Source: Patescibacteria group bacterium (GTDB lineage: Bacteria; Patescibacteriota; Microgenomatia; UBA10105; UBA927). From it: 64,000 nucleotides of DNA. This document shows positions 58 to 63,260 of the stretch, piece by piece; position 1 is the stretch's first letter; the number at the start of each line of letters is the position of its first letter. Under the pieces are notes generated by a model. It saw only the letters and a list, made by a program, of their open reading frames with translations, did not search any database and was not told the origin of the DNA. The translations under genes and the position numbers were made by a program. The stretch spans positions 92,705 to 156,704 of the forward strand of contig DATKGN010000004.1 of the NCBI GenBank assembly GCA_035510735.1, in the 5' to 3' direction.

Positions 58-984
58 ATGAAGTCGAATATATTTATCAAGTATCAAACAAAAGATTCTG
101 GTGGTTTTGATTTAACCACAATTGGAGAATCGTTTATAGGGATGGATTCTAATTTAAAGGATTTTTTTGAACTTTCTGGAATCGATGGCGAGCTTTTAGT
201 TAAAACTGAAAAAATATCTGAGGGTTCAGTATTAACTCATCAAGTTATTCATCTAGCTACATCGATGCCTTTTCATGACATACGTGAGTTGTTGGATTTT
301 TTATACGTCGTTGGAGCAGCAGAATATAAGATAGGGTCTGATTTTTTTCAGGCATTTGGCAGTGGATATAAAACAGTCAATGATTTTTTCAAGGAAAATC
401 CTTTGATTCTTGCTTCGATAGAATTGTTCCTAGGATATTATTTTACAAAATTAATGGACGCAGCTTCTTCTCAAAAGAATGGTCCAAAAAGTGACAATTC
501 TAATAGAAATATTCCGATGCGATATGCGAACGGGCTTCATAGAATGATTTTAGAGGGCAAATTTAGGAGAACGTTAAAACCGATAGTTGAAGGGAGCGCA
601 AGTGAAATAATTATTGGTAATAATCTTGAATTAAAAGATTCCTCACAAATAAACAGTGCAAATTTTGAGAACTATCTTCCAGAAGAAGAAAAAATCCTTC
701 CTGAGCTTGGAAATGGTACAACACATACATTTTTAGGGGAACTACTTGCTATACAGAGCACCAAGGGAGAAGTACTTAAGTTTAGGATTCACAACATTGA
801 TGAAAGATTTAATTTATTTACTGCATATCCAGCAGATGGTATGAATACAGAAAATTATATTCAATATTATAAAAAAGCAGTTAATATAACTGCTCAGGTA
901 ATTCGCGATTCGCTTTACAAAAAGCCAGAGTTGCAGATTTTATCAATAGAATTGACTCAACGAGACATGTTTGAGGGAAAATAA
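58..984 (+). CDS. hypothetical protein, translationally coupled to hsdR (14-nt overlap)
   Basis: 308-aa ORF with no recognisable motif. Its 3' end overlaps the hsdR start. AT-rich, like the rest of the island. Confidence 0.45.
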   Translation: MKSNIFIKYQTKDSGGFDLTTIGESFIGMDSNLKDFFELSGIDGELLVKTEKISEGSVLTHQVIHLATSMPFHDIRELLDFLYVVGAAEYKIGSDFFQAFGSGYKTVNDFFKENPLILASIELFLGYYFTKLMDAASSQKNGPKSDNSNRNIPMRYANGLHRMILEGKFRRTLKPIVEGSASEIIIGNNLELKDSSQINSANFENYLPEEEKILPELGNGTTHTFLGELLAIQSTKGEVLKFRIHNIDERFNLFTAYPADGMNTENYIQYYKKAVNITAQVIRDSLYKKPELQILSIELTQRDMFEGK

Positions 985-3925
985 ATATATGAAATTTAAC
1001 GAACAATATACAGTCGAAAAACACGTTATCAAATTCCTTTCCACAAATTTGGGTTATGAGTATATTGAACCTGATGAATTTGCTGAATTGAGAAGTTTGG
1101 AAAGTGAATACCTGATCGTTTCCCATCTTGCGGAAGCTATAAAGCGGATCAATAAAATTACTGATGATACAGAAGTACAAAGCGTTATTAGAGAAATAAA
1201 AAAAATTGATACAAACGAAGGTTTCCTAAAGCTCCTACGAGATGGCGTAAACCTTAAAGACACATTAACAGGTAAGATGCATGATTATCTGGTTGTTGAT
1301 TACGACAACATTGAAAATAATCGCTTCGTAGTGACCAATCAATTCTATTTTGAGGGCAATCTGGAAAATATAAGACCTGATATTTTAGTTTTTCTAAATG
1401 GTATTCCAATCGTTGATATTGAGGCAAAAAGCCCTACTGCTTCTACAACTGTTAGTTACGAAAATGCTATTGGTCAGATAATCCGCTATCAACGAGTAGC
1501 TATGAAACTATTCTGGCCGAATTGTTTTAATGTCGCGACAGATGGTTTAAAAACCGTTTATGCCACCACTTTCGCTCCAGAGCAGGATTTTTTGCAATGG
1601 AAAGACGAAGAACTTGAAAAAAAGCTCGATGGGCAGCTTGAAATGACTCTGACGTCTTTATTGGCAAAAGAAAGGTTATTAGACATAATCAAAAACTTTA
1701 TTGTTTTTGAGCAAACAAAAGATGGTCGAGTCAAAAAGATAGCTCGTTACCAACAGCTTCGTGCTACCAATAAAATTGTTGAACGAGTACAGGAAGGAAA
1801 AAAGAAACGAGGCTTAATCTGGCATACACAAGGATCAGGAAAATCTTTAACCATGTTTTTTGCCGCTTGGAAGCTTAGATTCGATAAGACACTCAAGAAT
1901 CCAAAAGTATTTGTTCTGGTTGATCGTATTGACCTTGATAACCAGATTTACGATTCATTCATCAATACTGGTGGTAAAAACGTGATTCGGGTTACTTCCC
2001 AGCGTGATCTCGCAAAAAAGATTACTAATGATGAGAGAGGAATTTTTATCTCTACCATTGAGAAGTTTAATGAGCTTCCCCTGCATCTTGACAATCCTAA
2101 TGAAAATATCATCGTTTTGTCTGACGAAGCTCACCGATCAAACGAGGGCGTAGCTGGAATTAAACTAAGAGATTCCATGCAAAAAGCCTTTTTCTTCGGC
2201 TTTACAGGTACGCCGATTGATAAAACAACTCTAAATACTCATCGAAACTTTGGACAAGAAGGTGAACGCTATCTTGATTACTATTCTATTCAACAGGCTA
2301 TTGATGACGGTGCAACACTGCCCGTAACGTATGAGGCTCGTCTTTCGAAATTCTTTATTGATGAACAAAAAATTGACCAACAATTTGACGAAATGACAAT
2401 CGATTTATCCCCAGAGCAAAAACAGTTAGTAATGCGACGTTATGGCAAAAAAGAGGCTCTTGTAAAGCTCGATAAACGCATGAAAGCTGTCGCACAAGAC
2501 ATTGTGGATCATTATAGACTCTACATCGAACCGAATGGTTTTAAGGCGCAAGTCGTCTGCTATGACCGAGAAGCTACAGCTAAATTCAAACAATTATTTG
2601 ATGAACTTATTCCAGCAGAATGGACAGAAGTTGTTTACTCACCCGGTGATCCGAACAGCGATCCAGAGAACTTGAGGAAATACAATACCAGCAAAGCTCA
2701 AAAAGAAAAGATTATTGATAAATTCAAAGATCCAAAAAGTTCTCTTAAATTACTTTTGGTCTGCGACATGCTTTTAACTGGATTTGATGCTCAAATTGAG
2801 CAAGCGATGTATTTGGATAAACCTTTACGAGATCATAACCTTTTGCAGGCTATTGCTCGTACAAATCGTGTATATCCAAACAAAGGGTGTGGAAAGATAA
2901 TTGATTACTACGGAATCACTAGAAACCTCTACGAAGCTCTTAACTTTGATGAAAGTATTATTGACTCTGCACTTATTGACCTTGATTCCCTTAAAGAAGA
3001 ATTTCTTGAGGTTCTTAACGAAATAAGAGAGATTTTTACTGGCATTAATCAAGAAGACCCATCAATTGAAAATTTGAGGCGATGCTTAAAAATCTTTATT
3101 GATAACGAAGGAAAACAACGCTATTTTACTGATAAATACTCCAGATTGAAGCTATTATTTGAAGTTTTGTCACCTGATCCGTTCCTTGCTGATTATATTA
3201 GGACATTCGAATGGATTACGAGCGTTTATATCGCCTTCCTTAATGATTTTAGACAAGAAAACTTGACTTTACAGGCTTTTCGAAGCGGTGACATTCCAAC
3301 TTTCGGAGAATACGGAGAAAAAGTTAAGAAACTGATTCAGGAACAGATTGATTATGAAGGAATCACAAAAAATTTCAGAGAGCTAAGGATCAATGATATC
3401 TATACTCTTGAGCGACTCGACAAGATGGAGGATGAAGAAAAAGCCTTGAATCTTGAAAAAATGCTCAAGCAAGAAATTTCTATTAACGTTGACACAAATC
3501 CTATATTTCAGAAATTCAGTGAGCGATTAACAGCTATCCGAAAAGAGTTTGAACAACACCAGATTGATCTTTCCGAAAGAATTAAGCGTTACTACGACTT
3601 GATGAACGATATTAAGAGCAAAGCAGACGAAGCCAAAGAAATGGGGCTTAATTTACGAGAATACGGACTGTTCGTTATATCTCAGGAATTTTTATCTAAA
3701 ACAGATCAACCAGTTCTATTAGCGTTATCTAAAGACCTTTCGAAAAGATTAGAGTCTATTCTTGATGAAGGTTGGCAAAATTCATCCAAACGAGAAGAAT
3801 TTCTTAAAGGTGTCAAGCAAATTATTCAAGAGCTTATCCTAAAAGACTATAAAGGTAAAATACAAGTCGAGGATTTCCCTAAATTTTTAAACAGACTTGT
3901 TGATATTGTTATTAAAAAATTCTGA
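971..3925 (+). CDS. hsdR: type I restriction enzyme R subunit (HsdR)
   Basis: N-terminal PD-(D/E)XK motif (RPDILVFLNGIPIVDIEAKS). SF2 motifs GSGKSLT (I), LSDEAHRS (II, DEAH) and QAIARTNR (VI). 984 aa, typical HsdR size. Confidence 0.85.
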   Translation: MRENKYMKFNEQYTVEKHVIKFLSTNLGYEYIEPDEFAELRSLESEYLIVSHLAEAIKRINKITDDTEVQSVIREIKKIDTNEGFLKLLRDGVNLKDTLTGKMHDYLVVDYDNIENNRFVVTNQFYFEGNLENIRPDILVFLNGIPIVDIEAKSPTASTTVSYENAIGQIIRYQRVAMKLFWPNCFNVATDGLKTVYATTFAPEQDFLQWKDEELEKKLDGQLEMTLTSLLAKERLLDIIKNFIVFEQTKDGRVKKIARYQQLRATNKIVERVQEGKKKRGLIWHTQGSGKSLTMFFAAWKLRFDKTLKNPKVFVLVDRIDLDNQIYDSFINTGGKNVIRVTSQRDLAKKITNDERGIFISTIEKFNELPLHLDNPNENIIVLSDEAHRSNEGVAGIKLRDSMQKAFFFGFTGTPIDKTTLNTHRNFGQEGERYLDYYSIQQAIDDGATLPVTYEARLSKFFIDEQKIDQQFDEMTIDLSPEQKQLVMRRYGKKEALVKLDKRMKAVAQDIVDHYRLYIEPNGFKAQVVCYDREATAKFKQLFDELIPAEWTEVVYSPGDPNSDPENLRKYNTSKAQKEKIIDKFKDPKSSLKLLLVCDMLLTGFDAQIEQAMYLDKPLRDHNLLQAIARTNRVYPNKGCGKIIDYYGITRNLYEALNFDESIIDSALIDLDSLKEEFLEVLNEIREIFTGINQEDPSIENLRRCLKIFIDNEGKQRYFTDKYSRLKLLFEVLSPDPFLADYIRTFEWITSVYIAFLNDFRQENLTLQAFRSGDIPTFGEYGEKVKKLIQEQIDYEGITKNFRELRINDIYTLERLDKMEDEEKALNLEKMLKQEISINVDTNPIFQKFSERLTAIRKEFEQHQIDLSERIKRYYDLMNDIKSKADEAKEMGLNLREYGLFVISQEFLSKTDQPVLLALSKDLSKRLESILDEGWQNSSKREEFLKGVKQIIQELILKDYKGKIQVEDFPKFLNRLVDIVIKKF

Positions 3926-4497
3926 TGAAACGACAGATAAGCTTACACAATAAAGTCATCAACTACTCAATCCGCAGGAGCAGGAGAGCCAAGCGGATGA
4001 GGTTAGCCGTCTATTGCGACGGTAATTTTATTGTTACTGTTCCCCAGATGTTTCCCTCTAACTCAGTTGACAGTTACGTAATTGCAAAATCACAATGGGT
4101 TATTTCCAAGCTCGATTTTTTTGAAGGACTAAACAAGAAGCAAAAATTAACTCTTGGGACTGATGGATATGATAAGTATAAGGAAAAAGCCTTAGAAATG
4201 GTTACAGAGAGGCTTACAGCTATTAATAACAAGCACTATAAATTAATGTTTAATAAGATTACTATCAAAAGTCAGAAAACACGCTGGGGAAGCTGTTCAA
4301 AGAAACAAAATCTTAACTTTAACTATAAAATTCTGTTCCTACCTCCCAAAATGCGGGATTACATCATGGTGCATGAGCTCTGTCATTTAAAAGAATTTAA
4401 TCATGCTAGCCGATTTTGGAGGCTTGTAGCAAAAGCTATGCCAGACTATACGAAAATTATTGGTGATTTGAAAGAAAAAGGTTTAACAATATCGTGA
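3925..4497 (+). CDS. DUF45/YgjP-like zinc metallohydrolase (HEXXH)
   Basis: HELCH (HEXXH) motif near the C-terminus. Start overlaps the hsdR stop (ATGA). This family commonly follows hsdR. Confidence 0.65.
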   Translation: MKRQISLHNKVINYSIRRSRRAKRMRLAVYCDGNFIVTVPQMFPSNSVDSYVIAKSQWVISKLDFFEGLNKKQKLTLGTDGYDKYKEKALEMVTERLTAINNKHYKLMFNKITIKSQKTRWGSCSKKQNLNFNYKILFLPPKMRDYIMVHELCHLKEFNHASRFWRLVAKAMPDYTKIIGDLKEKGLTIS

Positions 4498-4588
4498 ATA
4501 TAGAGTTAAGAGTATTATAAACGAAGCGATGTGAGCGTTAAACGTCGAGTAATCTTGGTTGTAGGCACAGAATGCATTGTAAAGATAA

Positions 4589-5059
4589 ATGAACTCAACA
4601 GAAATTATTTTTGATCCCCAGCTATTTTCTATTTGGAAAAAAGGTTTTCTGCCCAAAGATTGGCTCGCGTTGTATCCTACTATTTTTGATTCAGAAGATT
4701 TGCGATTAGCTCTCTCACAACCGCAATATCACTTCGCTGAATGGTTTACGGCAATTCATTATTTCAAGCTGGGATGGAATGCTCTCGTCGAACAATATAT
4801 TTATAAACCGCACGCGAGAAAACTTGTGATTATTGAAAAGTATTTAGGGAAGGAAGGTGTGGAATTTCTTCGCAAGAGTGAGGGTCGCGGTCGAATTCAA
4901 CCACCAGATTTGTTTTTATATCGTGGAGACGAATATTTTTTCGGAGAAATCAAAATGCCGTCTGATAAACTTCGCGACGAACAAAAAATATTTTTTGAAT
5001 CAATTGAGAAACACTTTAATACATCTGTGAGCATTATATATTTGAAAAAGCGCGTATAA
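4589..5059 (+). CDS. VRR-NUC-like nuclease domain protein
   Basis: C-terminal PDLFLY...GEIK...QK pattern resembling the VRR-NUC / PD-(D/E)XK core. Confidence 0.45.
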   Translation: MNSTEIIFDPQLFSIWKKGFLPKDWLALYPTIFDSEDLRLALSQPQYHFAEWFTAIHYFKLGWNALVEQYIYKPHARKLVIIEKYLGKEGVEFLRKSEGRGRIQPPDLFLYRGDEYFFGEIKMPSDKLRDEQKIFFESIEKHFNTSVSIIYLKKRV

Positions 5060-5112
5060 TCAGGCTATGTCTCAATATTACAATCCAAATCGCATATTAA
5101 ATAAACAACAAA

Positions 5113-6594
5113 ATGACGCTGTCTAAATCAGATTATCTTCTTTTCCTCAAACACCCCGCGTGGCTTTGGTTAAAAAAGCATGACAGACGAAAGCTGCCGC
5201 CCGTTGATGAAAATCTTCAAGCTGTCTTTGATGCCGGCCACATGTTTGAAAAGTATGCAGAGAAGTTATTCCCCGGCGGCGTTACTCTTGGGTTTTCTGA
5301 AGATGATTTTGATACGTATCTGAGTTTACCAGCACGAACGACACAGGCATTACGAGATGGCGCGACGACTATTTTCCAGGGGCGCTTTGAAAGCAACAAT
5401 ATAACGTGCATCTGCGATGTGGTGGTCAAAGTCAACGATTCAACCGTTGACCTCTATGAGATTAAATCCAGCACTGAAGCCAAAGAGCTCCACGAACATG
5501 ATCTCGCGTTTCAGATGATTGTGCTTGAAAGTTGCGGATATACCGTACGTACCATTAAAGTACTGCATGCCAACAATACGTATGTCCGTCAGGGAGCCAT
5601 TGACCCACAGCAACTGGTCATGTCTACGGATATCACGGAAACGGTGAAGGAGATGCGGGAAGATACTAAGTATCACATCACAAAAGCGCTGGAGGTGATG
5701 GCGGCACCGACCATTCCGGATATTTCGCCGATCCATGCCCAGTTTCAGTCATTGGGCGAATGGATAGAAATTTACAAGACATTCCATTCGGTGTCAGCCG
5801 GAAGCATTTATAGTCTGTGTCGGCTCAATGTGAAGCTTATTGAAGAGCTTGAGGATCGGCATATCGAAATGATTGCAGATATTCCTGAGGATATTGCACT
5901 GCGTCCCCAACAGAAGTTGCAGGTTCGCGCAACGAAAGAAAACAAGGTTCTTATTCGAGCATCCGACATTCGCACATTTCTCTCGCAATTTGTGTTTCCG
6001 CTCTACTTTCTTGACTACGAAACGCTCGCAAATGTGGTGCCGGAGTTTGATGGTACCCGTTCGTATCAGCAGGTACCATTCCAGTACTCGCTCCATATAT
6101 TGGATGCGCCCGGCAGCGAGGTGCGGCACGTGAGCTATCTTCATACAGAAAAAACAAACCCTGTCCTTCCGTTAAGTCAATCACTCCTATCCCATATCGG
6201 TACCACGGGGACTGTCCTCGTGTGGCATGAAAGTTTTGAAAAAGGACGCAATACCGAAATGGGTGAATTATTCCCTGAATTTAAAGCGTTTTATAGGGAG
6301 GTAAATAAGCGGATCATTGACTTGAAGATTCCCTTTTCCGAAGGATGGTATGTCCATAAAGACTTTTTAGGAAGTGCATCGATTAAAAAAGTATTGCCCG
6401 TCCTTGTTCCTGAACTTTCCTACACTGCCCTGGATATTCATGAAGGGAATTCGGCACAGCGTCTTTGGATGGAGACGGTGCTGGAAGGAGAACACGCGGC
6501 AGAACGCGCTAAAGTCTTCCAAAATCTCGATAAGTATTGTACACTGGACACACGTGCGATGGTACGCATTTACGAGAAATTGACTGCAATATGA
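5113..6594 (+). CDS. DUF2779-family PD-(D/E)XK (RecB-like) nuclease
   Basis: N-terminus LSKSDYLLFLKHPAWLWLKKH matches the characteristic DUF2779 start. D..DLYEIK nuclease motif. About 490 aa, typical for the family. Confidence 0.55.
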   Translation: MTLSKSDYLLFLKHPAWLWLKKHDRRKLPPVDENLQAVFDAGHMFEKYAEKLFPGGVTLGFSEDDFDTYLSLPARTTQALRDGATTIFQGRFESNNITCICDVVVKVNDSTVDLYEIKSSTEAKELHEHDLAFQMIVLESCGYTVRTIKVLHANNTYVRQGAIDPQQLVMSTDITETVKEMREDTKYHITKALEVMAAPTIPDISPIHAQFQSLGEWIEIYKTFHSVSAGSIYSLCRLNVKLIEELEDRHIEMIADIPEDIALRPQQKLQVRATKENKVLIRASDIRTFLSQFVFPLYFLDYETLANVVPEFDGTRSYQQVPFQYSLHILDAPGSEVRHVSYLHTEKTNPVLPLSQSLLSHIGTTGTVLVWHESFEKGRNTEMGELFPEFKAFYREVNKRIIDLKIPFSEGWYVHKDFLGSASIKKVLPVLVPELSYTALDIHEGNSAQRLWMETVLEGEHAAERAKVFQNLDKYCTLDTRAMVRIYEKLTAI

Positions 6595-14159: not shown

Positions 14160-14220
14160 TTCGTACGCAGACTTGCCTGTCTACCTGTGCAGACAGGCGG
14201 AGGTCAGGGGAGTATACTTC
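14160..14220. repeat. intergenic hairpin + promoter-like module, copy 1 (CCTGTCTACCTGTGCAGACAGG ... GGGGAGTATACT)
   Basis: Inverted repeat cctgtct/agacagg at about 14177-14198 followed by ggggagtatact, 24 nt upstream of the DUF2207 ATG. Near-identical copies at about 19272, 22882 and 24533. Confidence 0.6.
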
Positions 14221-14233
14221 AAATAGCTTCCGT

Positions 14234-18278: not shown

Positions 18279-19244
18279 ATGAAAAATAAATCCATAAAAA
18301 ATGACATCGTTATATATCAGGCTAAATCCGGTGCAATTGAGCTGAAAGGCGATTTTGCAAAAGAAACCATCTGGGCGACGCAGGCTCAGCTTGTTGATAT
18401 TTTTGAAATTGATCAGTCTGTAGCGTCAAGGCATATCAGTAACATATTTAACGATGGCGAGATATCAAAAGAAAGCAATATGCAAAAAATGCATAATGCA
18501 AATTCTGACAAACCAGTAATCTTATATTCACTTGATGTGATATTAGCCGTTGGTTATCGTGCTAATTCAGCACGAGCTATCCGCTTTCGTAAATGGGCGA
18601 CGCAGGTATTGAGAAACCATTTGATTAATGGTTATACGATTAACCGTTCACGCATCGCCAAAAATTACGGTAAATTTCTTAAAGCCGTTGAGCAGATAAA
18701 ACAGTTATTGCCTGAAAGCGGAAATGTGAGCACGGACAGCGCACTGGATCTCGTTTCGCTTTTTGCAAGCACGTGGATATCCCTTGAAGCATATGATACG
18801 TCGGTTTTGCCGGTGGCAGGCGCGACGCAAAAACAGGTTTCACTCACTGCACAGAATCTGGAGTCGGTTTTGAGAGAATTTAAGCATGAGTTGATGAAAC
18901 GGAAACAGGCGAGTGAGTTGTTCGGCCGGGAGCGGCAAGCGGATAGCTTTACGAGCATTGTCGGCAATGTATTTCAGTCATTTGGCGGGCGCGATGTGTA
19001 CCCGAGTGCAGAGGAAAAAGCGGCACATTTGTTGTATTTCGTCGTAAAAGATCATCCGTTTACCGACGGGAACAAACGGAATGGTGCGTTTGTGTTTATC
19101 TGGATTCTTAAGAAAGCGCGCCTCCTGAACGTTGGCCGTCTGACTCCTGAAGCTCTGACAGCGCTTACGTTATTGGTCGCAGAGAGCGATCCGAAAAATA
19201 AAGACAGAGTGATCGGGCTTATTTTGCTGCTTCTGAAAAAATAA
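18279..19244 (+). CDS. RhuM-family N-terminal domain fused to a Fic/Doc domain
   Basis: N-terminus matches the RhuM virulence-family start (IVIYQAKSGAIELKGDFAKETIWATQAQLVDIFE). C-terminal HPFTDGNKRNG Fic/Doc motif. Confidence 0.6.
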   Translation: MKNKSIKNDIVIYQAKSGAIELKGDFAKETIWATQAQLVDIFEIDQSVASRHISNIFNDGEISKESNMQKMHNANSDKPVILYSLDVILAVGYRANSARAIRFRKWATQVLRNHLINGYTINRSRIAKNYGKFLKAVEQIKQLLPESGNVSTDSALDLVSLFASTWISLEAYDTSVLPVAGATQKQVSLTAQNLESVLREFKHELMKRKQASELFGRERQADSFTSIVGNVFQSFGGRDVYPSAEEKAAHLLYFVVKDHPFTDGNKRNGAFVFIWILKKARLLNVGRLTPEALTALTLLVAESDPKNKDRVIGLILLLLKK

Positions 19245-19271
19245 TTAGAGCGCTTCCATTGACGATGGTAA

Positions 19272-19330
19272 ATGTATTTCGAACTAAGCTTGCCTGTCTA
19301 CCTGCGCAGACAGGCGTAGGTAGGGGATTT
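19272..19330. repeat. intergenic hairpin module, copy 2
   Basis: tgtatttcgaactaagcttgcctgtctacctgcgcagacaggcgtaggtagggg. The inverted repeat is identical to copy 1 apart from one loop base. Confidence 0.6.
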
Positions 19331-19426
19331 TGCCTCATTATCTCTAAAACACCGTGAATAGAGCCTATTTTTCACCCAAATTCATGATAAATTGACAAAA
19401 CACCGTGAATATGATAGTATACAGCC

Positions 19427-20317
19427 ATGGCTACTTCACGATTGATCACCGATAGGATACGGATATTAAAAACGCAATATGACCGTATGCGCGCCGGAAA
19501 AGATGCATTACTTGTGCTTATTGATGAAGCGGAGGTAGCGGAAAGCGTCTATAACTCCAACGCAATTGAGAACTCGACGCTCAGTCTCCCTGAAACGGAA
19601 AAAATATTGCTTGAAATGGAAGTTTCCCGGAATATTAGTGTGCGCGAAGTGTACGAAGCAAAAAATTTAGCCCGCGTAAGTGCTTATGTACGGGCATTAT
19701 CGAAAGACCGTGAACTGTCTAAAGAACTTATATGTGCACTTCACGGGATGCTTCTGGTTGGAATAGACGATACCATTGCCGGACGATTCAGGAAGGCAAA
19801 CGAATTTGTTCGCGTAGGCACATTTATCGCGCCAGCGCCTGAACATATAGATTTATTGATGGACCGGATGTTAGAAGAATATACGAGCAATCTGACGACG
19901 TATCCTCTGGATGCGATCGCGAGGTTTCATCTGGAGATTGAAACAATTCATCCGTTTAATGACGGCAACGGTCGTATCGGAAGAGCACTCATTAACCTAC
20001 AACTACAGCGCATCGGATTTCCAAACGTTATTATCCGGGATAAAGAAAAGCAGGAATATTATCGGGGATTTACGACGTACCGTGATGACAAAAAGACGCA
20101 AATCATGGAACGCGTGCTCACAAGAGCGATAATTGAATCACTGCACAAGAGGATTACCTATTTACAGGGAGAAGAAATACTGACGCTCGCGGCCTATGTC
20201 AAAGAGCATGGGTTCGGTGCTCCCACTGTATTTAATAAAGCACGCCGGCAAACAATCCCGGCCTTCCGCGAAAAGGGAGTGTGGAAAATAGGGAAAAATT
20301 ACAATCCTAAATCCTAA
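19427..20317 (+). CDS. Fic family protein (AMPylase/adenylyltransferase-type)
   Basis: Canonical HPFNDGNGRIGR Fic motif. Confidence 0.75.
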   Translation: MATSRLITDRIRILKTQYDRMRAGKDALLVLIDEAEVAESVYNSNAIENSTLSLPETEKILLEMEVSRNISVREVYEAKNLARVSAYVRALSKDRELSKELICALHGMLLVGIDDTIAGRFRKANEFVRVGTFIAPAPEHIDLLMDRMLEEYTSNLTTYPLDAIARFHLEIETIHPFNDGNGRIGRALINLQLQRIGFPNVIIRDKEKQEYYRGFTTYRDDKKTQIMERVLTRAIIESLHKRITYLQGEEILTLAAYVKEHGFGAPTVFNKARRQTIPAFREKGVWKIGKNYNPKS

Positions 20318-22113: not shown

Positions 22114-22770
22114 ATGGCGTATATCTTTTTAGATGAGAGTGGAGATTTGGGGTTCAAATCTGACAAAAGGAATTCAACATACTTCATTATTTCTGTTATT
22201 TCCTGTGAAGATAAGAAAAAGTTAGAAAAGGCAGTGAAAAAAGTTCATAGATCCCTTCGGAAAAAAGGTATTCGACTGTCCGCTGGTATACTTCATTGCT
22301 ATAAAGAAAAACCAGCTACGAGAAGAAAAATGTTACGTCTGTTGGCGGAATCAAAGATTTCAATTATGACTATTTGTTTAAACAAAAAGCGTGTCTACAC
22401 AAACTTACAGGAAGAAAAGCACGAACTATATAATTATGTGGTCAATATTCTTCTTGATAGAATAATGACAAAGCAACTTGTTATAAGTTCGGGAAGAATT
22501 TCACTTATTGCGTCTAAACGGGAAACGAATAAGTTCTTGAATGAGAATTTTTCTTCGTATCTTTCGGTTCAGGTTGAACGAAACCATAAAGTAAAGTTAG
22601 AAATACTCGTTCGTACCCCCGCAGCTGAAAAAAGCCTTCAGGCAGCTGATTTTGTCAGCTGGGCGATTTTTAAGAAGTATGAAAAGAACGATGACTCCTA
22701 TTATCGAATAATAAAGGATTTGATTATTGAGGAAAATATGCTTTTTGGCCCAAATACGACAAAACCCTAG
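22114..22770 (+). CDS. DUF3800-family protein (paralog A)
   Basis: N-terminal YIFLDESGD matches the conserved DES motif that defines DUF3800. Confidence 0.55.
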   Translation: MAYIFLDESGDLGFKSDKRNSTYFIISVISCEDKKKLEKAVKKVHRSLRKKGIRLSAGILHCYKEKPATRRKMLRLLAESKISIMTICLNKKRVYTNLQEEKHELYNYVVNILLDRIMTKQLVISSGRISLIASKRETNKFLNENFSSYLSVQVERNHKVKLEILVRTPAAEKSLQAADFVSWAIFKKYEKNDDSYYRIIKDLIIEENMLFGPNTTKP

Positions 22771-22979: not shown

Positions 22980-23777
22980 ATGGTAGTTACAAAAACGAAG
23001 CTTCCAGTTGTATACATGGATGAAACCGGGAATAAGGAGTCTGATCGATTTTTTGTGGTTGGTTTTCTTAGTGTGAGTGACACAGAACAGCTAAATAGTG
23101 AATTGATGAGAATAAAAGAGCAAATAGAGGCCCTTTCTCGATTTAATAGATTAAAACATGTTCAAATGCTGAAAAGTGAAGGTGATATAGAACAGTTATA
23201 TAATTTTGCCAAATCTGCTGGCACATTTGAGTTGAAGTTTAAACATATCACAGAAGAAAATATTCGGTTTTTTAAAATATTAATAAAAATATTAATTCAT
23301 CGAATTGATTTTCGTTTTGATGCACTCGTTATTGACAGAAAAGATCCAAACTATCGGCATACAGACCTCTCTGACATGTATAAGATAATTACACACTTGT
23401 ACTTTAATCATAGATGTAAAGTAGGTTCTATTTTTGTTCCGGATAGTTTTGATTATCGATGGAATTGGGCATCTATGCTCAATAATCCACAAATAGTCGC
23501 GATTATTCCCAGTTCATCACATGCTTTATTAGCGCTTCAAACAGTTGACATCCTTACGGGGTTAGTGGCCCAAGGGTTAAAAAATAAAGCGGACTATACA
23601 AATAAGGACAAAGTGCGGGCCTCTTTGCTTAAAGTTTTTACTGAAGAAGCAAAGGTATCGATTGAGAAATCAGTTACGGTGAATAAACCAAAATATATAA
23701 GCATTTGGACGATAGACTTTTCAAGAACGAAAAAAGGAGCTCAAAGCATGGACAAAAAATCCAACCTTGGCTCCTAA
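22980..23777 (+). CDS. DUF3800-family protein (paralog B)
   Basis: N-terminal VVYMDETGN (DES-type motif). Similar length and architecture to the upstream paralog. Confidence 0.5.
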   Translation: MVVTKTKLPVVYMDETGNKESDRFFVVGFLSVSDTEQLNSELMRIKEQIEALSRFNRLKHVQMLKSEGDIEQLYNFAKSAGTFELKFKHITEENIRFFKILIKILIHRIDFRFDALVIDRKDPNYRHTDLSDMYKIITHLYFNHRCKVGSIFVPDSFDYRWNWASMLNNPQIVAIIPSSSHALLALQTVDILTGLVAQGLKNKADYTNKDKVRASLLKVFTEEAKVSIEKSVTVNKPKYISIWTIDFSRTKKGAQSMDKKSNLGS

Positions 23778-24532: not shown

Positions 24533-24598
24533 TGTATTTCGAGCGTGAGCTTGCCTGTCTACCTGTGCAGACAGGCGCAGCCAGGGGGAGTATAATTT
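24533..24598. repeat. intergenic hairpin + promoter-like module, copy 4
   Basis: gtgtatttcgagcgtgagcttgcctgtctacctgtgcagacaggcgcagccagggggagtataatttt. The TATAAT lies about 13 nt before the RadC-like ATG. Confidence 0.6.
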
Positions 24599-24608
24599 TA
24601 ATGTATTT

Positions 24609-25292
24609 ATGCACAAGGATTTATACAAAAACGCCGGTCATAGAAAACGATTAAGAGACAGATTTTTACAATCAGGTTTTGATGGATTCGTAGACTACGA
24701 AATTATTGAACTACTTTTAACTCTTGGCACCCCTAGAAAAGACTGTAAACAGACGGCGAAAAATGCGATTAAAAAGTTTGGAGGGCTATATGGTACACTC
24801 GATGCCTCCCTTGAGGAATTACAAAAAATCAAGGGGATTGGACAATATAACGCATTCGGTTTGAAGTTGTTTCAAGCAATTACTGAGCGTCTTGCAAGAG
24901 AGCAAGTACCAAAAAAAATTACACTAAATTCTTTAAAGTCAGTAGCAAATTATTTACAGATGTCTATTGGTCGAAAAAAGAAAGAGTATTTTGTTATGTT
25001 GTCTATCGATTCACGGAACAATTTAATAAAGGTTAGTAATATTTCAGTTGGTTCGCTTAATGAAAGCGTAGTTCATCCAAGAGAGGTTTTTAAAGAAGCA
25101 ATTCAATCGTCCGCGGCACAGATATTAATCGCACATAATCATCCGTCAGACAATCCTGAAGCATCGCCCGAAGATGTTGCGCTCACACGACGCCTTGTGG
25201 AAGTGGCAAGAATTTTCGATATTCAGTTACTTGATCATATAATCGTAACTAAGAATAATTTTTTTAGTTTAAAAGAACAAAATTTAATTTAA
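24609..25292 (+). CDS. RadC-like JAB/MPN domain protein (UPF0758)
   Basis: HNHPSDNPEASPED JAMM-like motif. Helix-hairpin-helix GIGQYNAFG. Confidence 0.75.
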   Translation: MHKDLYKNAGHRKRLRDRFLQSGFDGFVDYEIIELLLTLGTPRKDCKQTAKNAIKKFGGLYGTLDASLEELQKIKGIGQYNAFGLKLFQAITERLAREQVPKKITLNSLKSVANYLQMSIGRKKKEYFVMLSIDSRNNLIKVSNISVGSLNESVVHPREVFKEAIQSSAAQILIAHNHPSDNPEASPEDVALTRRLVEVARIFDIQLLDHIIVTKNNFFSLKEQNLI

Positions 25293-25296
25293 GTTT

Positions 25297-25650
25297 ATGT
25301 CTGACATAAAAAAACTTACGAGAAAAATTATGAAATTTAGGGATGATCGAGATTGGAAGAAGTTTCATAATCCAAAAGATGTCGCCTTGTCACTAGTATT
25401 AGAGGCGACTGAGGTTTTAGAAAAATTTCAATGGAAAAATCAAAAGGAAACTGAAGAATATATAAGAACAAACAAGGCGGATATCGGCGAAGAACTAGCA
25501 GACGTTTTATATTGGATTTTACTAATGAGTTATGATCTCGATATAAATATTAACCGGGCCCTAGAAAATAAGATTAAGAAAAATGAAAGACATTATCCCG
25601 TAGATAAAGCAAAAGGCAAACATGTTAAATATACGGAGCTTAAAATATGA
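25297..25650 (+). CDS. MazG-like nucleoside-triphosphate pyrophosphohydrolase
   Basis: All-alpha NTP-PPase signature EATEVLEKF...EEYI...GEELADVLYWIL (EExxE...E..D). Confidence 0.65.
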   Translation: MSDIKKLTRKIMKFRDDRDWKKFHNPKDVALSLVLEATEVLEKFQWKNQKETEEYIRTNKADIGEELADVLYWILLMSYDLDININRALENKIKKNERHYPVDKAKGKHVKYTELKI

Positions 25651-27494
25651 TTCTCTACGATGCGGATATTGAACATTTTAGTGAAGATGTAATGCAGAAT
25701 CGCATTGCTGACCGCGCATCCGAAAAATATCAAGAATATTATAAGAGGCAACCAGGAAAGTCTGAATATCGTTCGTGGGCAATTTCATTGGCAATTTTAA
25801 ATAACAGCTTCATGTATGCCGGACTTAAAGACAATCATATAGTTGTCGAATATGAACTGCCATTTGCTTCACAAAGGATTGATGTATTATTGTTCGGACA
25901 TGATAGTGTCGGAAAAGAAAATATAGTAATAATGGAACTTAAACAATGGTCAAACGATAGCGTGAAAGACTCTGCTTCAGAAGGAAACATAATCGTTAAT
26001 TATGGAAGATTTGAAAAGGAACGACCTCATCCAGCTCTACAGGTGCAGGGTTATTATTTTGGCCTAAAGGATTTTGTTAAAATTTTTGATGAAACGAATG
26101 CACCAGAATTGAGCGCATCAGTATATGCACACAACTATTCAAAATACAAAGACGCTGTTTTACTTTCTCCTAAATATTCTGAATTAATCAAAACATTCCC
26201 CATATTTACAAAAGAAGACGCAATCGAACTAGGCAGATATCTTAATGAACGTCTGCACAACGGTAAGGGACAAATGGTTTATGAGCATTTTGCTAGGAGT
26301 CCGATTGGCCCATCAAAAAAACTTCTAGATCACACAAGTGAAATGATTAATAAGCGACAGATATTTAATTTAATAGATGATCAAATTGTTGCTTACAATA
26401 CCATAAAACACAAAGCGAAAGAGTTGGCTACAACAAAAAAGAAATCTGTTGTAATTGTAAAAGGTGGTCCAGGTACTGGGAAGTCTGTTATAGCATTAGA
26501 GGTTATGGGGGAACTATTGCGGCAAGGAAAAACTGTTTTTCATGCTACTGGAGGTTCAGCATTTACGAACACACTAAGGAAGATAGTCGGTATACGGGCG
26601 AAAGGTCTTTTTAAATTCTTCTTTAATTTCACCAAACTTCCTGATAATTCTGTCGACGTATTAATTTGCGATGAAGCTCATCGTATCCGCGAAAATAGTA
26701 ACGACTACGGCGTTCCATTCATGTTCAAATCACGTAATCCACAGATTGATGATTTAATACGTCCTGCAAGGCTATGCATATTCTTTATAGATGAGTTTCA
26801 GGTAGTAAGACCGAAAGAAGTTGGAAGTGTTGCAATGATTAAGGAGGCTGCTAAACGATTTGGGGTTAATGAATCTGAGATTTCTGAATTTGAGTTAAAA
26901 ACACAATTTCGCTGTTCAGGCTCAGATGCGTATTTGCAATGGATAGATAATATTTTGAATATTTGTGATTCTGATATTGCCTACATTGATCCTAAAATGG
27001 AATTCCGTATTTTTGACTCGCCATCAAAAATGTTGGAAGAAATTAGAATTAAAAATCGTGAGAAAAAGAACTCAGCAAGAATTGTTGCTGGATTTTGTTG
27101 GCCTTGGAGCAATCCGAACGCTGATGGTTCTCTTGTAAACGATGTAAAAATTGATAACTTTGAAATGCCTTGGGAGCAAAAAAATCAATTCTGGAAATGG
27201 GCAACTGACGATTCAGGAATGGAACAAGTTGGTACTGTATATACGGCACAGGGATTTGAATTTGACTACATAGGTGTAATCTTTGGAAAAGATTTAATCT
27301 ACGATGGTAATAAATGGGTTGCTATTCCAGAAAATTCTTATGACACTCAAGTTAAAAGAAAAAATTCAAATTTAGTAAATCATTTGAAACACATTTACAG
27401 AGTATTAATGACGAGAGCGCACAGAGGAGTCTTTGTTTATTTTATGGACAAGAGCACTGAGAAATATTTTAAAGAAAATTTGAATAGCAAATAA
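25647..27494 (+). CDS. DUF2075-type P-loop ATPase/helicase-like protein with N-terminal PD-(D/E)XK nuclease domain
   Basis: N-terminal IDVLLF...IMELKQ (D-E-K). Walker A GGPGTGKS. LICDEAHRI (DEAH-like). C-terminal YTAQGFEFDYIGVI. The 4-nt overlap with the MazG-like gene implies co-translation. Confidence 0.7.
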   Translation: MILYDADIEHFSEDVMQNRIADRASEKYQEYYKRQPGKSEYRSWAISLAILNNSFMYAGLKDNHIVVEYELPFASQRIDVLLFGHDSVGKENIVIMELKQWSNDSVKDSASEGNIIVNYGRFEKERPHPALQVQGYYFGLKDFVKIFDETNAPELSASVYAHNYSKYKDAVLLSPKYSELIKTFPIFTKEDAIELGRYLNERLHNGKGQMVYEHFARSPIGPSKKLLDHTSEMINKRQIFNLIDDQIVAYNTIKHKAKELATTKKKSVVIVKGGPGTGKSVIALEVMGELLRQGKTVFHATGGSAFTNTLRKIVGIRAKGLFKFFFNFTKLPDNSVDVLICDEAHRIRENSNDYGVPFMFKSRNPQIDDLIRPARLCIFFIDEFQVVRPKEVGSVAMIKEAAKRFGVNESEISEFELKTQFRCSGSDAYLQWIDNILNICDSDIAYIDPKMEFRIFDSPSKMLEEIRIKNREKKNSARIVAGFCWPWSNPNADGSLVNDVKIDNFEMPWEQKNQFWKWATDDSGMEQVGTVYTAQGFEFDYIGVIFGKDLIYDGNKWVAIPENSYDTQVKRKNSNLVNHLKHIYRVLMTRAHRGVFVYFMDKSTEKYFKENLNSK

Positions 27495-27640
27495 GTCAAA
27501 TGATTTATTAACTCCCCGGCCGTATGCCAGAGGAAATTGAAATTGTTGAGAAAAGCACAAAATAATTATGTATAAATTGTCACCGTCCGACTTCGTCCCA
27601 CATTACATTGGAACGGCGTCCAAGGGAGTAAAATATAAAT

Positions 27641-28312
27641 ATGTTTAAGGTATCTCCCTCGGACTTCGCGTACCTGTATGAAGAATGCAAGCATTGTTAT
27701 TATCTCAAGGTCAGGAGGGGAATTACACGACCGCAGGCGGTGATGCCGGGGATCTTTACCGCGATCAATACGCGGCTGCAAGGCATGCTGGTTGGAAAGG
27801 ACTTGCGGACACTTTCTCCGCTACTCCCCGAGGGGTTAGTTGAGAGTCAGGAGGGGTTTGTGGAGTCGGAGAAAGTTCCGGGGACAGAGGTGTATATCAA
27901 AGGAAAATATGACTTACTCGTTCTCCAGCCCGACGGCACGTACATGCTTGTCGATTTTAAATTAAGTCAGCCGAGCGAGGATAAAATTCCCAAGTATCAG
28001 ACCCAGCTCCAGGCGTATCACTATGCGTTTTTGCACCCGGCCAAAGGTGAAATTAAAAATATTACGAAGATGGGGCTTATCATCATGTATCCCGATAAAG
28101 TGAAATTTGAAGAGGGGACGGCCATCCTTTCTTTCCCGCCGAAGTGGATGGGTATTGATATTAACACGGATAAATTTTTAGACTTTATCAATTCGGTAAG
28201 TACGCTTCTCGAGGGTCCGACCCCGCCTGAAAATCCCAACTGCAAGTGGTGCAAATACAGGCATTTAGGCGAAGCGCTCAATTATCCGTCATCCTCCATC
28301 GATCCGTTTTAA
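27641..28312 (+). CDS. Cas4-like Fe-S PD-(D/E)XK nuclease (standalone)
   Basis: N-terminal CKHC and C-terminal CKWC cysteine pairs bracket a DLLVLQPDGTYMLVDFK nuclease core. Confidence 0.5.
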   Translation: MFKVSPSDFAYLYEECKHCYYLKVRRGITRPQAVMPGIFTAINTRLQGMLVGKDLRTLSPLLPEGLVESQEGFVESEKVPGTEVYIKGKYDLLVLQPDGTYMLVDFKLSQPSEDKIPKYQTQLQAYHYAFLHPAKGEIKNITKMGLIIMYPDKVKFEEGTAILSFPPKWMGIDINTDKFLDFINSVSTLLEGPTPPENPNCKWCKYRHLGEALNYPSSSIDPF

Positions 28313-55056: not shown

Positions 55057-55722
55057 TTATTGCAGTGGGTGAACGAAGTAAACGCTTCGCGTAGGATCGT
55101 CTATGTTTGCGCGGTGACCCGCTGTCAGATTCCAAACGTGCGTATTATTGTCATTGTCGACAAGCGCGAATTTGAGAGATCCTGTTTTAACGGTTATGGA
55201 CATATCGGAATCAATGACGTTAATGATCGCTGTCCCGGAATTAATTGATACCAATGTGTGTAAAGCGCGAACAGACATGGGATACCCGCTATCCGTGACA
55301 TCGTACTGAATTTTGCCGCTTTTTTGCTCCAGAACCATATCCGTGGGAAACAGATTAGCAAACGCAAGCTCCGCGTTTTGGTTAAGTGTAGCGGTTACGA
55401 TTCCGCTTACCGTCGCGACGGCTATCCCATTTTCATCGGTTGCGACAGATTCGCCGGTCAGGATTTGCCCACCAGGAGTAGCATCCTGATACGAATCATT
55501 AGTACGCGTCAGCTGCGTTACTTTGTTGTGGAGAATTGTTAACGTGCCGCTTACCGATTGAGATGGGGGAGTGAGAATAAACGGCGTCGGTGAAACCGCC
55601 GGTGATTGAGACGTCATTGAAGTTGGAGTATATGAATTATTGGTATGGCGGATATATTGGAATCCCCACACAGCGATAACGCCGATTGCAAAGAAGAGGG
55701 TGGTAAGTAAGAAGTTTTTCAC
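55057..55722 (-). CDS. secreted hypothetical protein
   Basis: N-terminal TM/signal. T/S-rich region. Confidence 0.35.
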   Translation of the reverse strand: MKNFLLTTLFFAIGVIAVWGFQYIRHTNNSYTPTSMTSQSPAVSPTPFILTPPSQSVSGTLTILHNKVTQLTRTNDSYQDATPGGQILTGESVATDENGIAVATVSGIVTATLNQNAELAFANLFPTDMVLEQKSGKIQYDVTDSGYPMSVRALHTLVSINSGTAIINVIDSDMSITVKTGSLKFALVDNDNNTHVWNLTAGHRANIDDPTRSVYFVHPLQ

Positions 55723-55793: not shown

Positions 55794-56091
55794 TCCCCTG
55801 TAGCTCAACGGTAGAGCGGCTTCCTGTCACAAGGCAGCGCCAAATAGCAATATTTGGATGAACATCGGGCTAATTCGGGGGACTCCTGCACCGCGTTGGT
55901 TTAGGACAATCCCGAGCTAAATTTCTTTTGCAACGCAAATGGACTCGTCCTGAGCGAGGTCGAAGGATAAATGTGTAGAGACTATATACCCGACTCCCGA
56001 TTTTATCGGGATGATGAGATAGTCCAGTCTTTTTGGTAACAGAAAGCAAACTGTAAGAAGAAGGTTGCAGGTTCGAATCCTGCCGGGGGAG
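55794..56091 (+). tRNA. tRNA-Asn(GUU) interrupted by a group I intron (exons 55794-55827 and 56054-56091)
   Basis: The joined exons give a canonical 72-nt cloverleaf. Acceptor UCCCCUG/CGGGGGA, D-stem GCUC/GAGC, anticodon stem GCUUC/GAAGA, loop CUGUUAA, T-arm GCAGG-UUCGAAU-CCUGC, discriminator G. Very similar to E. coli tRNA-Asn. Confidence 0.7.
55828..56053 (+). ncRNA. group I (self-splicing-type) intron in the tRNA-Asn anticodon loop, ORF-less, about 226 nt
   Basis: 5' exon ends in U and intron ends in G. P1 hairpin cugu/gcag with a U.G at the splice site. P-like aauucggggga. P7 candidate ggacu (55941-45) with aguCC in the S-like element gagauaguCC (56016-25). 55842-55855 aaatagcaatattt resembles the start of the Tetrahymena LSU intron. 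Confidence 0.6.
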
Positions 56092-56118
56092 CAATTTCTA
56101 CGGATTTCTTCGGATTTT
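56086..56118. repeat. 33-bp direct repeat, copy A (overlaps tRNA-Asn 3' end), putative attL-like site
   Basis: ggggagcaatttctacggatttcttcggatttt. Identical copy at 61616-61648. Confidence 0.7.
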
Positions 56119-56143
56119 ATTACCCTCTGATATACTGCTATTA

Positions 56144-58677: not shown

Positions 58678-58801
58678 GTTATTTTTAATCGCCTAATTAG
58701 TATAATAAATAGTCCGAACATCCTCTACCGCTTGGAGCATTTTAATTTTGGAGCATATTGATGCCCCAATTCTTATTACAGTTTACTTCCAAAGGCGATT
58801 A

Positions 58802-59662: not shown

Positions 59663-59833
59663 TCAGAAATTTAAGATTAAATAGTTTCGAACATCGTCTA
59701 CTGCTCGGAGCAAAAGTTGATTATCGGCGTAATTTAGTATTGTATCAAAGGGTTTTATAGCTTCATAGTGCACCGTTTCACCATCTACCTTAAGGTTCTG
59801 AAGTACAAGTTTAACTAACTGACGTTTTTTCAT
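59663..59833 (-). CDS. small ORF (56 aa), hypothetical. An upstream in-frame start-less remnant suggests a decayed gene
   Basis: ATG preceded by AAGGTG. Translation MKKRQLVKLVLQNLKVDGETVHYEAIKPFDTILNYADNQLLLRAVDDVRNYLILNF. Not in the supplied ORF track (<60 aa). Confidence 0.2.
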   Translation of the reverse strand: MKKRQLVKLVLQNLKVDGETVHYEAIKPFDTILNYADNQLLLRAVDDVRNYLILNF

Positions 59834-61615: not shown

Positions 61616-61648
61616 GGGGAGCAATTTCTACGGATTTCTTCGGATTTT
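61616..61648. repeat. 33-bp direct repeat, copy B (putative attR-like site)
   Basis: Identical to 56086-56118. Lies at the far edge of the AT-rich 5.5-kb segment. Confidence 0.7.
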
Positions 61649-61671
61649 CTTGCTTCTGTTATAATTTCTCC

Positions 61672-63201: not shown

Positions 63202-63260
63202 TTAGATTATACAGTAATAGGTCCGAACATCCTCTACAGTTTGGAGCGCATTGGACTAAA

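Follow-up and report, generated by a model that had tools for sequence, protein, structure and literature searches.

A RadC–MazG–DUF2075 gene cassette as a candidate nuclease-helicase defence system in Patescibacteria

A conserved MazG–DUF2075 core with RadC as an accessory gene

Across bacteria and archaea, the genes for a small MazG-like pyrophosphohydrolase and a DUF2075 nuclease-helicase form a conserved two-gene core. In the clade to which our sequence belongs, RadC is a fixed accessory third gene, and the linkage of the trio is reciprocal there. We studied this gene set in a 64,000-nucleotide (nt) stretch from a Patescibacteria group bacterium (GenBank assembly GCA_035510735.1, contig DATKGN010000004.1, positions 92,705 to 156,704 of the forward strand), hereafter the window. 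We regard it as an evenly balanced proposition that RadC, MazG and DUF2075 (24609-27494) constitute a single operon and a horizontally mobile cassette of nucleic-acid-targeting defence type.

The three genes lie on the plus strand. RadC, a UPF0758 protein of 227 amino acids (aa), comes first (24609-25292), and its TAA stop is separated by 4 nt from the ATG of the MazG-like gene (25297-25650, 117 aa), the conserved partner of the nuclease-helicase. The TGA of the latter shares the letters ATGA (25647-25650) with the start codon of the DUF2075 gene, which encodes the presumed effector (25647-27494, 615 aa). A 146-nt spacer with a promoter-like site of its own then leads to a Cas4-like PD-(D/E)XK nuclease gene on the same strand (27641-28312, 223 aa), which we treat below as a neighbour and island anchor and not as a component of the cassette. 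G+C content is 0.34–0.41 across 22–28 kb, compared with 0.45–0.51 in the flanking DNA. The original prediction, made from the letters of the window, had described four co-directional open reading frames (ORFs), the ATGA overlap, an AT-rich block and an upstream hairpin, all of which are found where it placed them, and its assignment of RadC, MazG-like, DUF2075 and Cas4-like domains was borne out by Pfam and NCBIfam searches. The four-gene locus also occurs on other assemblies of this organism, and the RadC of the window is 100% identical to RadC from a Patescibacteria metagenome-assembled genome.

With a single genome taken for each GTDB species, a scan for DUF2075 relatives gave 80 loci (42–79% identity), hosted by Patescibacteria, Omnitrophota, Acidobacteriota, Nitrospirota, Bacteroidota, Planctomycetota, Bacillota (Parageobacillus), DPANN archaea, Bathyarchaeia and others. 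Partner genes were counted with iterative hidden Markov model searches of six-frame ORFs in 82 non-redundant loci; individual loci are referred to by their L numbers. MazG-like genes were present near DUF2075 in 70 of the 75 loci with at least 400 nt upstream, and in 60 of those 75 they were directly adjacent on the same strand, often with a 4-nt overlap. Between bacteria and archaea the effectors are 60–73% identical, which suggests horizontal transfer and not vertical housekeeping inheritance.

The MazG–DUF2075 pair persists at 25–34% identity on plasmids of Bacillota and haloarchaea and in a phage. A Priestia plasmid carries DUF3578, MazG and DUF2075 in this order within a restriction-modification (RM) cluster, and megaplasmids of Bacillus thuringiensis and B. 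cereus carry either HNH–MazG–DUF2075 or MazG–HNH–DUF2075. In one of these Bacillus effectors the N-terminus shows, instead of NERD, a GIY-YIG match that is weak (2.6e-4) and does not reach the Pfam cutoff. The pair also occurs on a Halalkalicoccus plasmid and in the deposited genome of Microcystis phage Mwe-JY31, where identity is 32% over the full length. Approached from the MazG side, three of the four plasmid neighbourhoods examined contained a DUF2075 gene. The original prediction had named lack of conservation of the MazG–DUF2075 adjacency as grounds for its refutation; the adjacency is strongly conserved, on plasmids and in a phage too, and the prediction is not refuted by this check.

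RadC lies within 8 kb of DUF2075 in 20 of the 82 loci and takes three gene orders: RadC–MazG–DUF2075, MazG–RadC–DUF2075 and, in Woesearchaeota, MazG–DUF2075 with a convergent RadC overlapping the 3' end. The 120 closest RadC homologues (at least 70% identity) mostly share contigs with DUF2075 homologues. Two RadC homologues that were not matched to the listed DUF2075 contigs, one of them from Jorgensenbacteria, again showed the order RadC–MazG–DUF2075, with unrelated flanks (AbiEii and peptidase C39 at one locus, TIR and Top1B at the other). All four genes of the window, the Cas4-like gene included, occur together in 9 of the 82 loci when counted from DUF2075. Mantel correlations of partner distances with DUF2075 distances reached significance for each of the three partners (MazG r = 0.46, RadC 0.82, Cas4-like 0.51) and therefore do not separate components from co-resident genes, so the mirror-tree comparison was not used.

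The surroundings are rich in defence genes. Pfam and PADLOC scans of the first 28 kb of the window gave many defence-type genes, and elsewhere the cassette stands beside AbiEii, OLD, TIR, HNH and RM genes, a setting that supports the candidate defence role in the original prediction.

Domain architecture of the cassette proteins

The C-terminal part of the effector (aa 266-601) matches the SLFN-g3_helicase family (PF09848, 1.7e-80), with a Walker A motif GGPGTGKS at aa 273-280 and a Walker B motif DEAH at aa 342-345, both invariant among homologues. Ahead of it lies a nuclease domain at approximately aa 60-145, in which E68, D79 and E97-L-K99 are invariant among 42 homologues down to 25% identity. 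Pfam NERD, a PD-(D/E)XK family, was matched by 19 of these 42 N-terminal domains (best 6.2e-6; 0.07 for the window protein), and Shedu SduA_C by three. Together, these sequence features show the effector to have the makeup of a NERD-type PD-(D/E)XK nuclease fused to a superfamily 1 (SF1) helicase of the Schlafen group-3/DUF2075 type; the PD-(D/E)XK nuclease that had been proposed for this protein is its N-terminal domain.

The effector family is of moderate size, with 624 clusters (50% identity) at E ≤ 1e-30. A PDB profile search with the N-terminal domain gave spurious designed-armadillo matches only, and one with the full-length profile gave SLFN5 alone, weakly (0.0052). An AlphaFold2 model of the 615-aa protein, built on a 17-sequence alignment, had a mean pLDDT of 50.6 and a pTM of 0.38 and was too poor for a fold search. 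Matches to named defence models were partial or weak: PADLOC returned PDC-S41 at 1.7e-20 in two stretches and AbiO and Nhi at about 1e-13, the Nhi match (3.9e-13) covering residues 259-461 only. The verified Nhi-like protein of B. cereus, whose sequence we took from the supplement of its paper, aligned by BLASTP in the region of the Walker motifs only (25% identity over 100 aa, E = 7e-7). Membership of the effector in Nhi-like or PDC-S41 was rejected on these partial matches.

The MazG-like protein matches PF12643 at 7.9e-16 (58.5 bits against a cutoff of 27) as well as Pfam MazG and dUTPase_2, and over its whole length it can be aligned with an archaeal pyrophosphatase (PDB 4qgp, 2.3e-20) and with DCTPP1/RS21-C6 (3e-17). 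Its metal-binding EXXE...EXXD residues (E36, E39, E66, D69) are 100% conserved in 58 sequences that include mouse RS21-C6 and 4qgp, and the aromatic residues W20 and W46 are conserved too. DCTPP1 acts on dCTP whose base is methylated or otherwise modified, hydrolysing it and preventing its misincorporation (PMC13291643, PMC4491611). Because the MazG-like protein is a close DCTPP1/RS21-C6 homologue with intact catalytic residues, a putative role in clearing modified dCTP from the pool fits it better than bulk depletion of nucleoside triphosphates (NTPs). MazG-like proteins also partner nucleases at a locus lacking DUF2075: in Vibrio phage 10N.286.55.A5_PE003 (L193, 1519-3848), two HNH endonuclease genes are followed by a MazG-like gene whose product is 36% identical to that of the window. 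This is a P2/186-like temperate phage, and the gene sits in its integrase–CI accessory region beside a Type II restriction endonuclease and a HEPN protein.

RadC consists of an N-terminal HhH-type domain and a JAB/MPN+ metallo-enzyme domain (Pfam PF04002 at 7.7e-42, UPF0758_N at 1.5e-10). It scores above the cutoffs of two curated models, PRK00024 (218.6 bits, cutoff 180) and TIGR00608 (191.6 bits, cutoff 133.85), and aligns with the solved RadC JAB domain (PDB 2qlc, 1.1e-22). As read from the translation, the JAB/MPN+ motif is intact (E159, H176-x-H178, S186-x-x-D189).

A second putative peptidase appears in another clade. In 17 loci the effector is approximately 795 aa long, and its C-terminal ~180 aa form an S24 peptidase domain of the LexA/UmuD type with a GxSMEP...KR motif (Pfam 3.5e-9 to 3.9e-8) (L017, L019-L025, L027, L029, L035, L037, L038, L041, L042, L057 and L087). 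RadC was found in none of these 17 loci, compared with 20 of the 65 others (Fisher p = 0.009, kinship ignored). From this pattern, the JAB and S24 peptidases may stand in for each other as regulators, which could respond to RecA on single-stranded DNA. One Omnitrophota contig (CAVYLG010000005.1) carries two MazG–DUF2075(S24) modules, L021 and L057, approximately 17 kb apart.

Further nucleases often follow the effector. HNH genes lie directly 3' of it in 13 loci and belong to three unrelated HNH endonuclease families. Among the closest relatives of the window, the DUF2075 stop is overlapped by 4 nt by a gene whose 231-aa product has an HNH motif at its C-terminus and an N-terminal domain that matches no assigned family (L009 9857-10558, L010, L011, L013, L021, L027, L046, L065 and others), and two HNH_2 families take its place in other clades. 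The window lacks the gene for this protein, and its module has no HNH partner. The N-terminal domains of the HNH partners may read modified bases. The DUF3578 protein directly 5' of MazG on the Priestia plasmid is McrB-N-like and matches the PADLOC model for a Type IV methyl-directed restriction enzyme. Modification-dependent restriction endonucleases have been reported next to DUF2075 NTPases (PMC6765204).

The Cas4-like gene marks a putative insertion hot spot

The original prediction had extended the module to the Cas4-like gene. This fourth member did not hold up, while RadC–MazG–DUF2075 did. The Cas4-like gene lies within 8 kb of DUF2075 in 17 of the 82 loci, on either side and in either orientation. 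Approached from the Cas4-like gene, a metagenome scan gave 83 loci, 55 of which had at least 3 kb of flank and were informative; none of the 55 contained DUF2075. Reciprocal co-occurrence thus fails for a four-gene module, which we rejected, and because the cargo upstream of the Cas4-like gene varies as well, we do not count this gene as a component. In four annotated neighbourhoods the upstream cargo was unrelated defence genes, among them a reverse transcriptase accompanied by an EcoRI-type methylase and a GmrSD-N/HNH protein, the pair Tsp45I and Mrr, a DUF3800 gene beside one for an HATPase protein, and Fic. In two of the four (L096 and L097), the 3' side held the housekeeping genes GreA, AspRS, RpoB and RpoC. 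Conserved in its own right, the Cas4-like gene is found mostly in Patescibacteria among named hosts, and defence cassettes gather 5' of it.

Its product matches PDDEXK_1 (2e-10) and has a RecB-type core (D91, D105-x-K107, Q122...Y126). Four invariant cysteines (C16, C19, C201, C204) are arranged as CxxC...CxxC, that is 2+2, and not as the 1+3 pattern C...CxxCx5C of Cas4; they could possibly bind a metal or an Fe-S cluster. Assignment as a true Cas4 was rejected on this cysteine pattern and on the score with the cas4 model TIGR00372 (33.6 bits against a cutoff of 65); PADLOC Cas4 models gave 8.7e-9 at best. No Cas families were detected among the called genes within 5–7 kb on either side in five annotated Cas4-like neighbourhoods.

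The first nine codons of the Cas4-like gene, ATGTAYAARYTNTCNCCNTCNGAYTTYG (MYKLSPSDF, the family consensus), form a sharp-edged direct repeat of 27–30 bp. In the window the two copies lie at 27569-27596 and 27641-27668, both on the plus strand, with 45 nt between them. The upstream copy, offset by 72 nt from the real start, has the appearance of a recombination or insertion scar. A pattern search of the window for the 28-bp repeat gave two matches against 0.13 expected. The same duplication occurs in at least five other independent loci, where the copies start at 12180/13851 (L009), 6928/7004 (L095), 6264/8001 (L130), 8004/8293 (L143) and 5084/7489 (L172). They enclose approximately 49 nt in L095 and a degenerate gene copy of approximately 0.3 kb in L143; in the remaining three loci 1.7–2.4 kb lie between them, containing Fic-type genes (L172), an unannotated 338-aa gene next to Fic (L130) or Cas4-like and Bro-N genes (L009). 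No recombinase was identified with the ~28-bp direct repeat. The 5' end of the Cas4-like gene looks like a site-specific insertion hot spot, with the repeat as an att-type core or insertion scar. Such a hot spot would explain why defence cassettes, this one included, stand beside the Cas4-like gene, and could help to mine genomes of the candidate phyla radiation (Patescibacteria) for new systems.

Other elements of the window

Upstream of RadC lies a 53-nt repeat (24550-24602, plus strand), the likely promoter of the RadC–MazG–DUF2075 operon. It contains the hairpin CCTGTCT-N8-AGACAGG and a promoter-like CAGACA-17-TATAAT at 24568-24596, just ahead of the RadC start codon. Two further window copies, at 14172-14224 and 19289-19341, precede a DUF2207 membrane-protein gene and a Fic gene, respectively. 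A check of the other 183 fetched loci confined the repeat to contigs of the same organism (L178-L181), and the intergenic fold at the repeat was no better than that of shuffled sequences (z = -0.98). On these two results we rejected the hairpin repeat as part of the module. The original prediction had regarded it as a conserved hairpin/promoter module; its restriction to one organism makes it a genome-specific intergenic element, which may be a shared regulatory or repetitive extragenic palindrome (REP)-like element of this Patescibacteria genome. An Rfam scan of the module region gave no RNA family.

Farther upstream, at 971-6594 and 18279-20317, the window encodes HsdR of a Type I restriction system together with a YgjP-like metallopeptidase, a DUF2779 protein of the Cas4-like Fe-S nuclease family, a RhuM/Fic protein and a SoFic-like Fic protein (PADLOC SoFic 1.7e-30, PDC-S04 7e-34). 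Two DUF3800 genes lie at 22114-22770 and 22980-23777. DUF3800 genes recur beside the cassette and beside the Cas4-like gene on unrelated contigs (L182 7952-8671, for example), and the 265-aa copy of the window weakly matches the PADLOC candidate PDC-M04A (2.7e-9); they may be another resident of defence islands.

In the right part of the window, a group I catalytic intron at 55813-56046 (plus strand) matches the full Rfam model (74 bits, E = 6.3e-17) and is flanked by ORFs at 55057-55722 (minus strand) and 56144-57919 (plus strand), with no rRNA or tRNA detected near it. It is followed by a 36-nt repeat (56086-56121) with a second copy at 61616-61651. A second family of 38-nt direct repeats (58701-58738, 59674-59711 and 63210-63247; 63–82% identity) occupies the AT-rich right end.

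Proposed mechanism and alternatives

Our best reading, held with moderate confidence, is that the cassette serves defence through a nuclease-helicase linked to DNA modification, with a partner enzyme that sanitises the nucleotide pool. The helicase would load on foreign DNA, which the nuclease would then degrade. A link to base-modified DNA is suggested by the HNH and McrB-N-like partners and by the way phages escape the related Nhi-like protein, through loss of a methylase. The MazG-like protein would hydrolyse non-canonical deoxynucleoside triphosphates (dNTPs) such as 5-methyl-, 5-hydroxymethyl- or otherwise modified dCTP. This activity could serve self-protection, keeping modified nucleotides released from degraded foreign DNA off the host chromosome, or it could deprive phages that make modified DNA of their building blocks. 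RadC, with a DNA-binding HhH domain and a JAB domain resembling metalloproteases, would be a regulatory accessory, analogous to the LexA/S24 autopeptidase domain fused to the effector in another clade.

A bolder proposal, which we put forward only tentatively, is that the DCTPP1-like enzyme is the self-protection part of a modification-dependent nuclease-helicase, destroying modified dNTPs (set free from degraded foreign DNA or made by phage) where other systems methylate self, and that RadC in trans and S24 in cis are interchangeable proteolytic switches gating the effector. If modified bases were kept out of the host chromosome in this way, DNA containing such bases would be foreign by definition, and nucleotide-pool sanitation would become part of immune self/non-self discrimination. 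The neighbourhood data point to an overlooked rule, namely that a whole DUF2075 branch in bacteria and archaea almost always comes with a DCTPP1-like pyrophosphatase. Schlafen-type (DUF2075) nuclease-helicases are validated anti-phage effectors related to the human antiviral SLFN proteins. RadC, to which no function has been assigned for decades, is here joined to a nuclease-helicase, and the S24 autopeptidase may be its functional analogue.

Several points weigh against a defence system linked to modified DNA. MazG is absent beside several relatives at 39% identity or below (Hymenobacter, Streptomyces, Nocardiopsis and Methanosphaera), some of which have DUF3883-type partners instead. By sequence, the effector is distant from the verified Nhi-like protein and from the PADLOC Nhi, AbiO and PDC-S41 models. 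The preference of the MazG-like protein for modified dNTPs is predicted from homology, RadC is not known to have a biochemical activity, and the mutual exclusion of RadC and S24 may reflect mere phylogeny. Three further points also count in favour of a different role: the closest effector relatives are concentrated in ultra-small symbionts, the effector is unusually conserved for a defence gene (69–89% identity among more than 120 clusters), and no effector relative was found in the viral contigs of IMG/VR. These would fit a module for DNA scavenging and nucleotide salvage, in which the nuclease-helicase unwinds and degrades imported or foreign DNA, the DCTPP1-like enzyme clears modified dNTPs from the salvaged pool and RadC assists DNA processing, with defence at most a by-product. 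Patescibacteria, Omnitrophota and DPANN archaea, where the nearest relatives are concentrated, do not make nucleotides de novo and import DNA, and RadC is a competence-regulon gene in some bacteria. Pool sanitation is the role of DCTPP1, and the RadC score exceeds the cutoff of a housekeeping equivalog model. We nevertheless think a salvage role unlikely: the flanks differ from genome to genome and contain defence neighbours (AbiEii, OLD, TIR, HNH, RM, Fic), the block is AT-rich relative to its surroundings, the bacterial–archaeal identity points to horizontal transfer, and the pair is carried by a phage and, within RM clusters, by plasmids of free-living hosts (Bacillus, Priestia and haloarchaea).

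The original prediction had suggested an abortive-infection or nucleic-acid-targeting system; in the abortive-infection reading, the MazG-like enzyme would deplete canonical (d)NTPs upon infection while the nuclease-helicase attacks nucleic acid. MazG-family enzymes do hydrolyse (d)NTPs, the Pfam MazG, MazG-like and dUTPase_2 matches and the weak AbiO-like matches agree with such a role, and dNTP depletion by dCTP deaminase or dGTPase is an established defence strategy. Against it, the protein found here is a 117-aa DCTPP1-type enzyme lacking a sensor or regulatory domain, its closest solved relatives are house-cleaning enzymes that prefer modified dCTP, and no PADLOC model matches it; moreover, it is co-translated with the effector, so that uncontrolled bulk depletion would be constitutively toxic. 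Depletion accordingly ranks below salvage in our estimate and is quite unlikely. Lower still we place an accessory of mobile elements (anti-restriction, establishment or addiction), which would serve its carrier and not host defence, for instance by processing incoming DNA or as a toxin–antidote pair with the nuclease-helicase as toxin and MazG or RadC as antidote. An antidote-first order with translational coupling would suit it, as would the movement of the trio as a unit among unrelated contexts and the Bro-N and small HTH-like genes near the cassette in L001 and L003; mobile elements commonly encode RadC-like JAB proteins. Yet no integrase, relaxase or replication genes accompany the trio in the loci examined, RadC here is a full-length UPF0758 protein and not of the short mobile-element type, and the same mobility is seen for many defence systems, which makes this account improbable. 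That the genes are chance neighbours forming no functional unit is hardly credible. It holds for the Cas4-like gene, given the reciprocal count and the 146-nt spacer, but for the trio it is refuted by neighbourhood counts, since the MazG–DUF2075 adjacency spans two domains of life and RadC combines three independent gene orders with reciprocal linkage.

Comparison with known systems

The nearest known counterparts of the effector are Nhi of Staphylococcus epidermidis (SERP2475; Bari et al. 2022) and the Nhi-like protein of B. cereus FSL H8-0482 (Millman et al. 2022), both experimentally validated anti-phage proteins. Like the effector, they are single polypeptides of approximately 600 aa in which a PD-(D/E)XK nuclease domain precedes a DUF2075/SF1 helicase domain, and they reside in defence islands. 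The Nhi-like protein is escaped when the phage loses its DNA methylase, a sensitivity to methylation that matches the modification-linked partners of our cassette. They differ in being single-gene systems (the verified construct is one gene), whereas here a MazG-like gene is near-universal and RadC or S24 is often present. The cassette probably represents a variant of this known anti-phage type, on a separate branch. The effector likewise matches in part PDC-S41, a PADLOC candidate for single-gene defence by a DUF2075 nuclease-helicase of approximately 650 aa. Paralogous DUF2075 genes lie directly 3' of MazG–DUF2075(S24) in three loci (L020 10400-12394, L023 3954-5930 and L029 2520-4496); the one in L023 matches PDC-S41 end to end (8.9e-288) and the verified B. 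cereus Nhi-like protein at 6e-40, so that PDC-S41 and Nhi-like appear to be one lineage.

The MazG-like protein shares with DCTPP1/RS21-C6 and 4qgp the full-length alignment, the EXXE...EXXD residues, W20 and W46; unlike DCTPP1/RS21-C6, it is a stand-alone prokaryotic protein of 117 aa inside a nuclease-helicase operon. Type IV systems (McrBC, GmrSD and the PUA/DUF3427-HNH proteins of PMC6765204) resemble the cassette through its recurrent HNH_2/HNH and McrB-N-like DUF3578 partners. They differ in that the proteins of the window showed no recognised reader domain for modified bases; here, modification dependence is inferred. For RadC, a review describes RadC domains fused to DinG helicases and a structure that resembles JAMM proteases and not nucleases (PMC11981726), so that in these RadC-like DinG proteins a RadC JAB domain has become linked to a DNA helicase a second time, independently. 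Their RadC domain is fused to a superfamily 2 DinG helicase, whereas here RadC is not fused: it is a separate full-length UPF0758 protein beside an SF1 DUF2075 helicase. The neighbouring 223-aa nuclease shares with Cas4 the RecB-like PD-(D/E)XK core, the QxxxY motif and N- and C-terminal cysteines, and departs from it in its score below the model cutoff, its 2+2 cysteines and annotated neighbourhoods devoid of cas genes.

PADLOC v2.0.0 has no name for the MazG–DUF2075 combination, and in the searchable literature we found nothing relevant on MazG with DUF2075, Schlafen, modification-dependent restriction or an anti-phage helicase. The original prediction had not recognised the combination as a named system; this still stands for PADLOC and the literature, but the effector itself has the known Nhi/Nhi-like architecture. 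What appears to be new here is the near-obligate DCTPP1-like partner, the alternation of RadC and S24 and the distribution over both domains of life, built around an effector of a kind already known.

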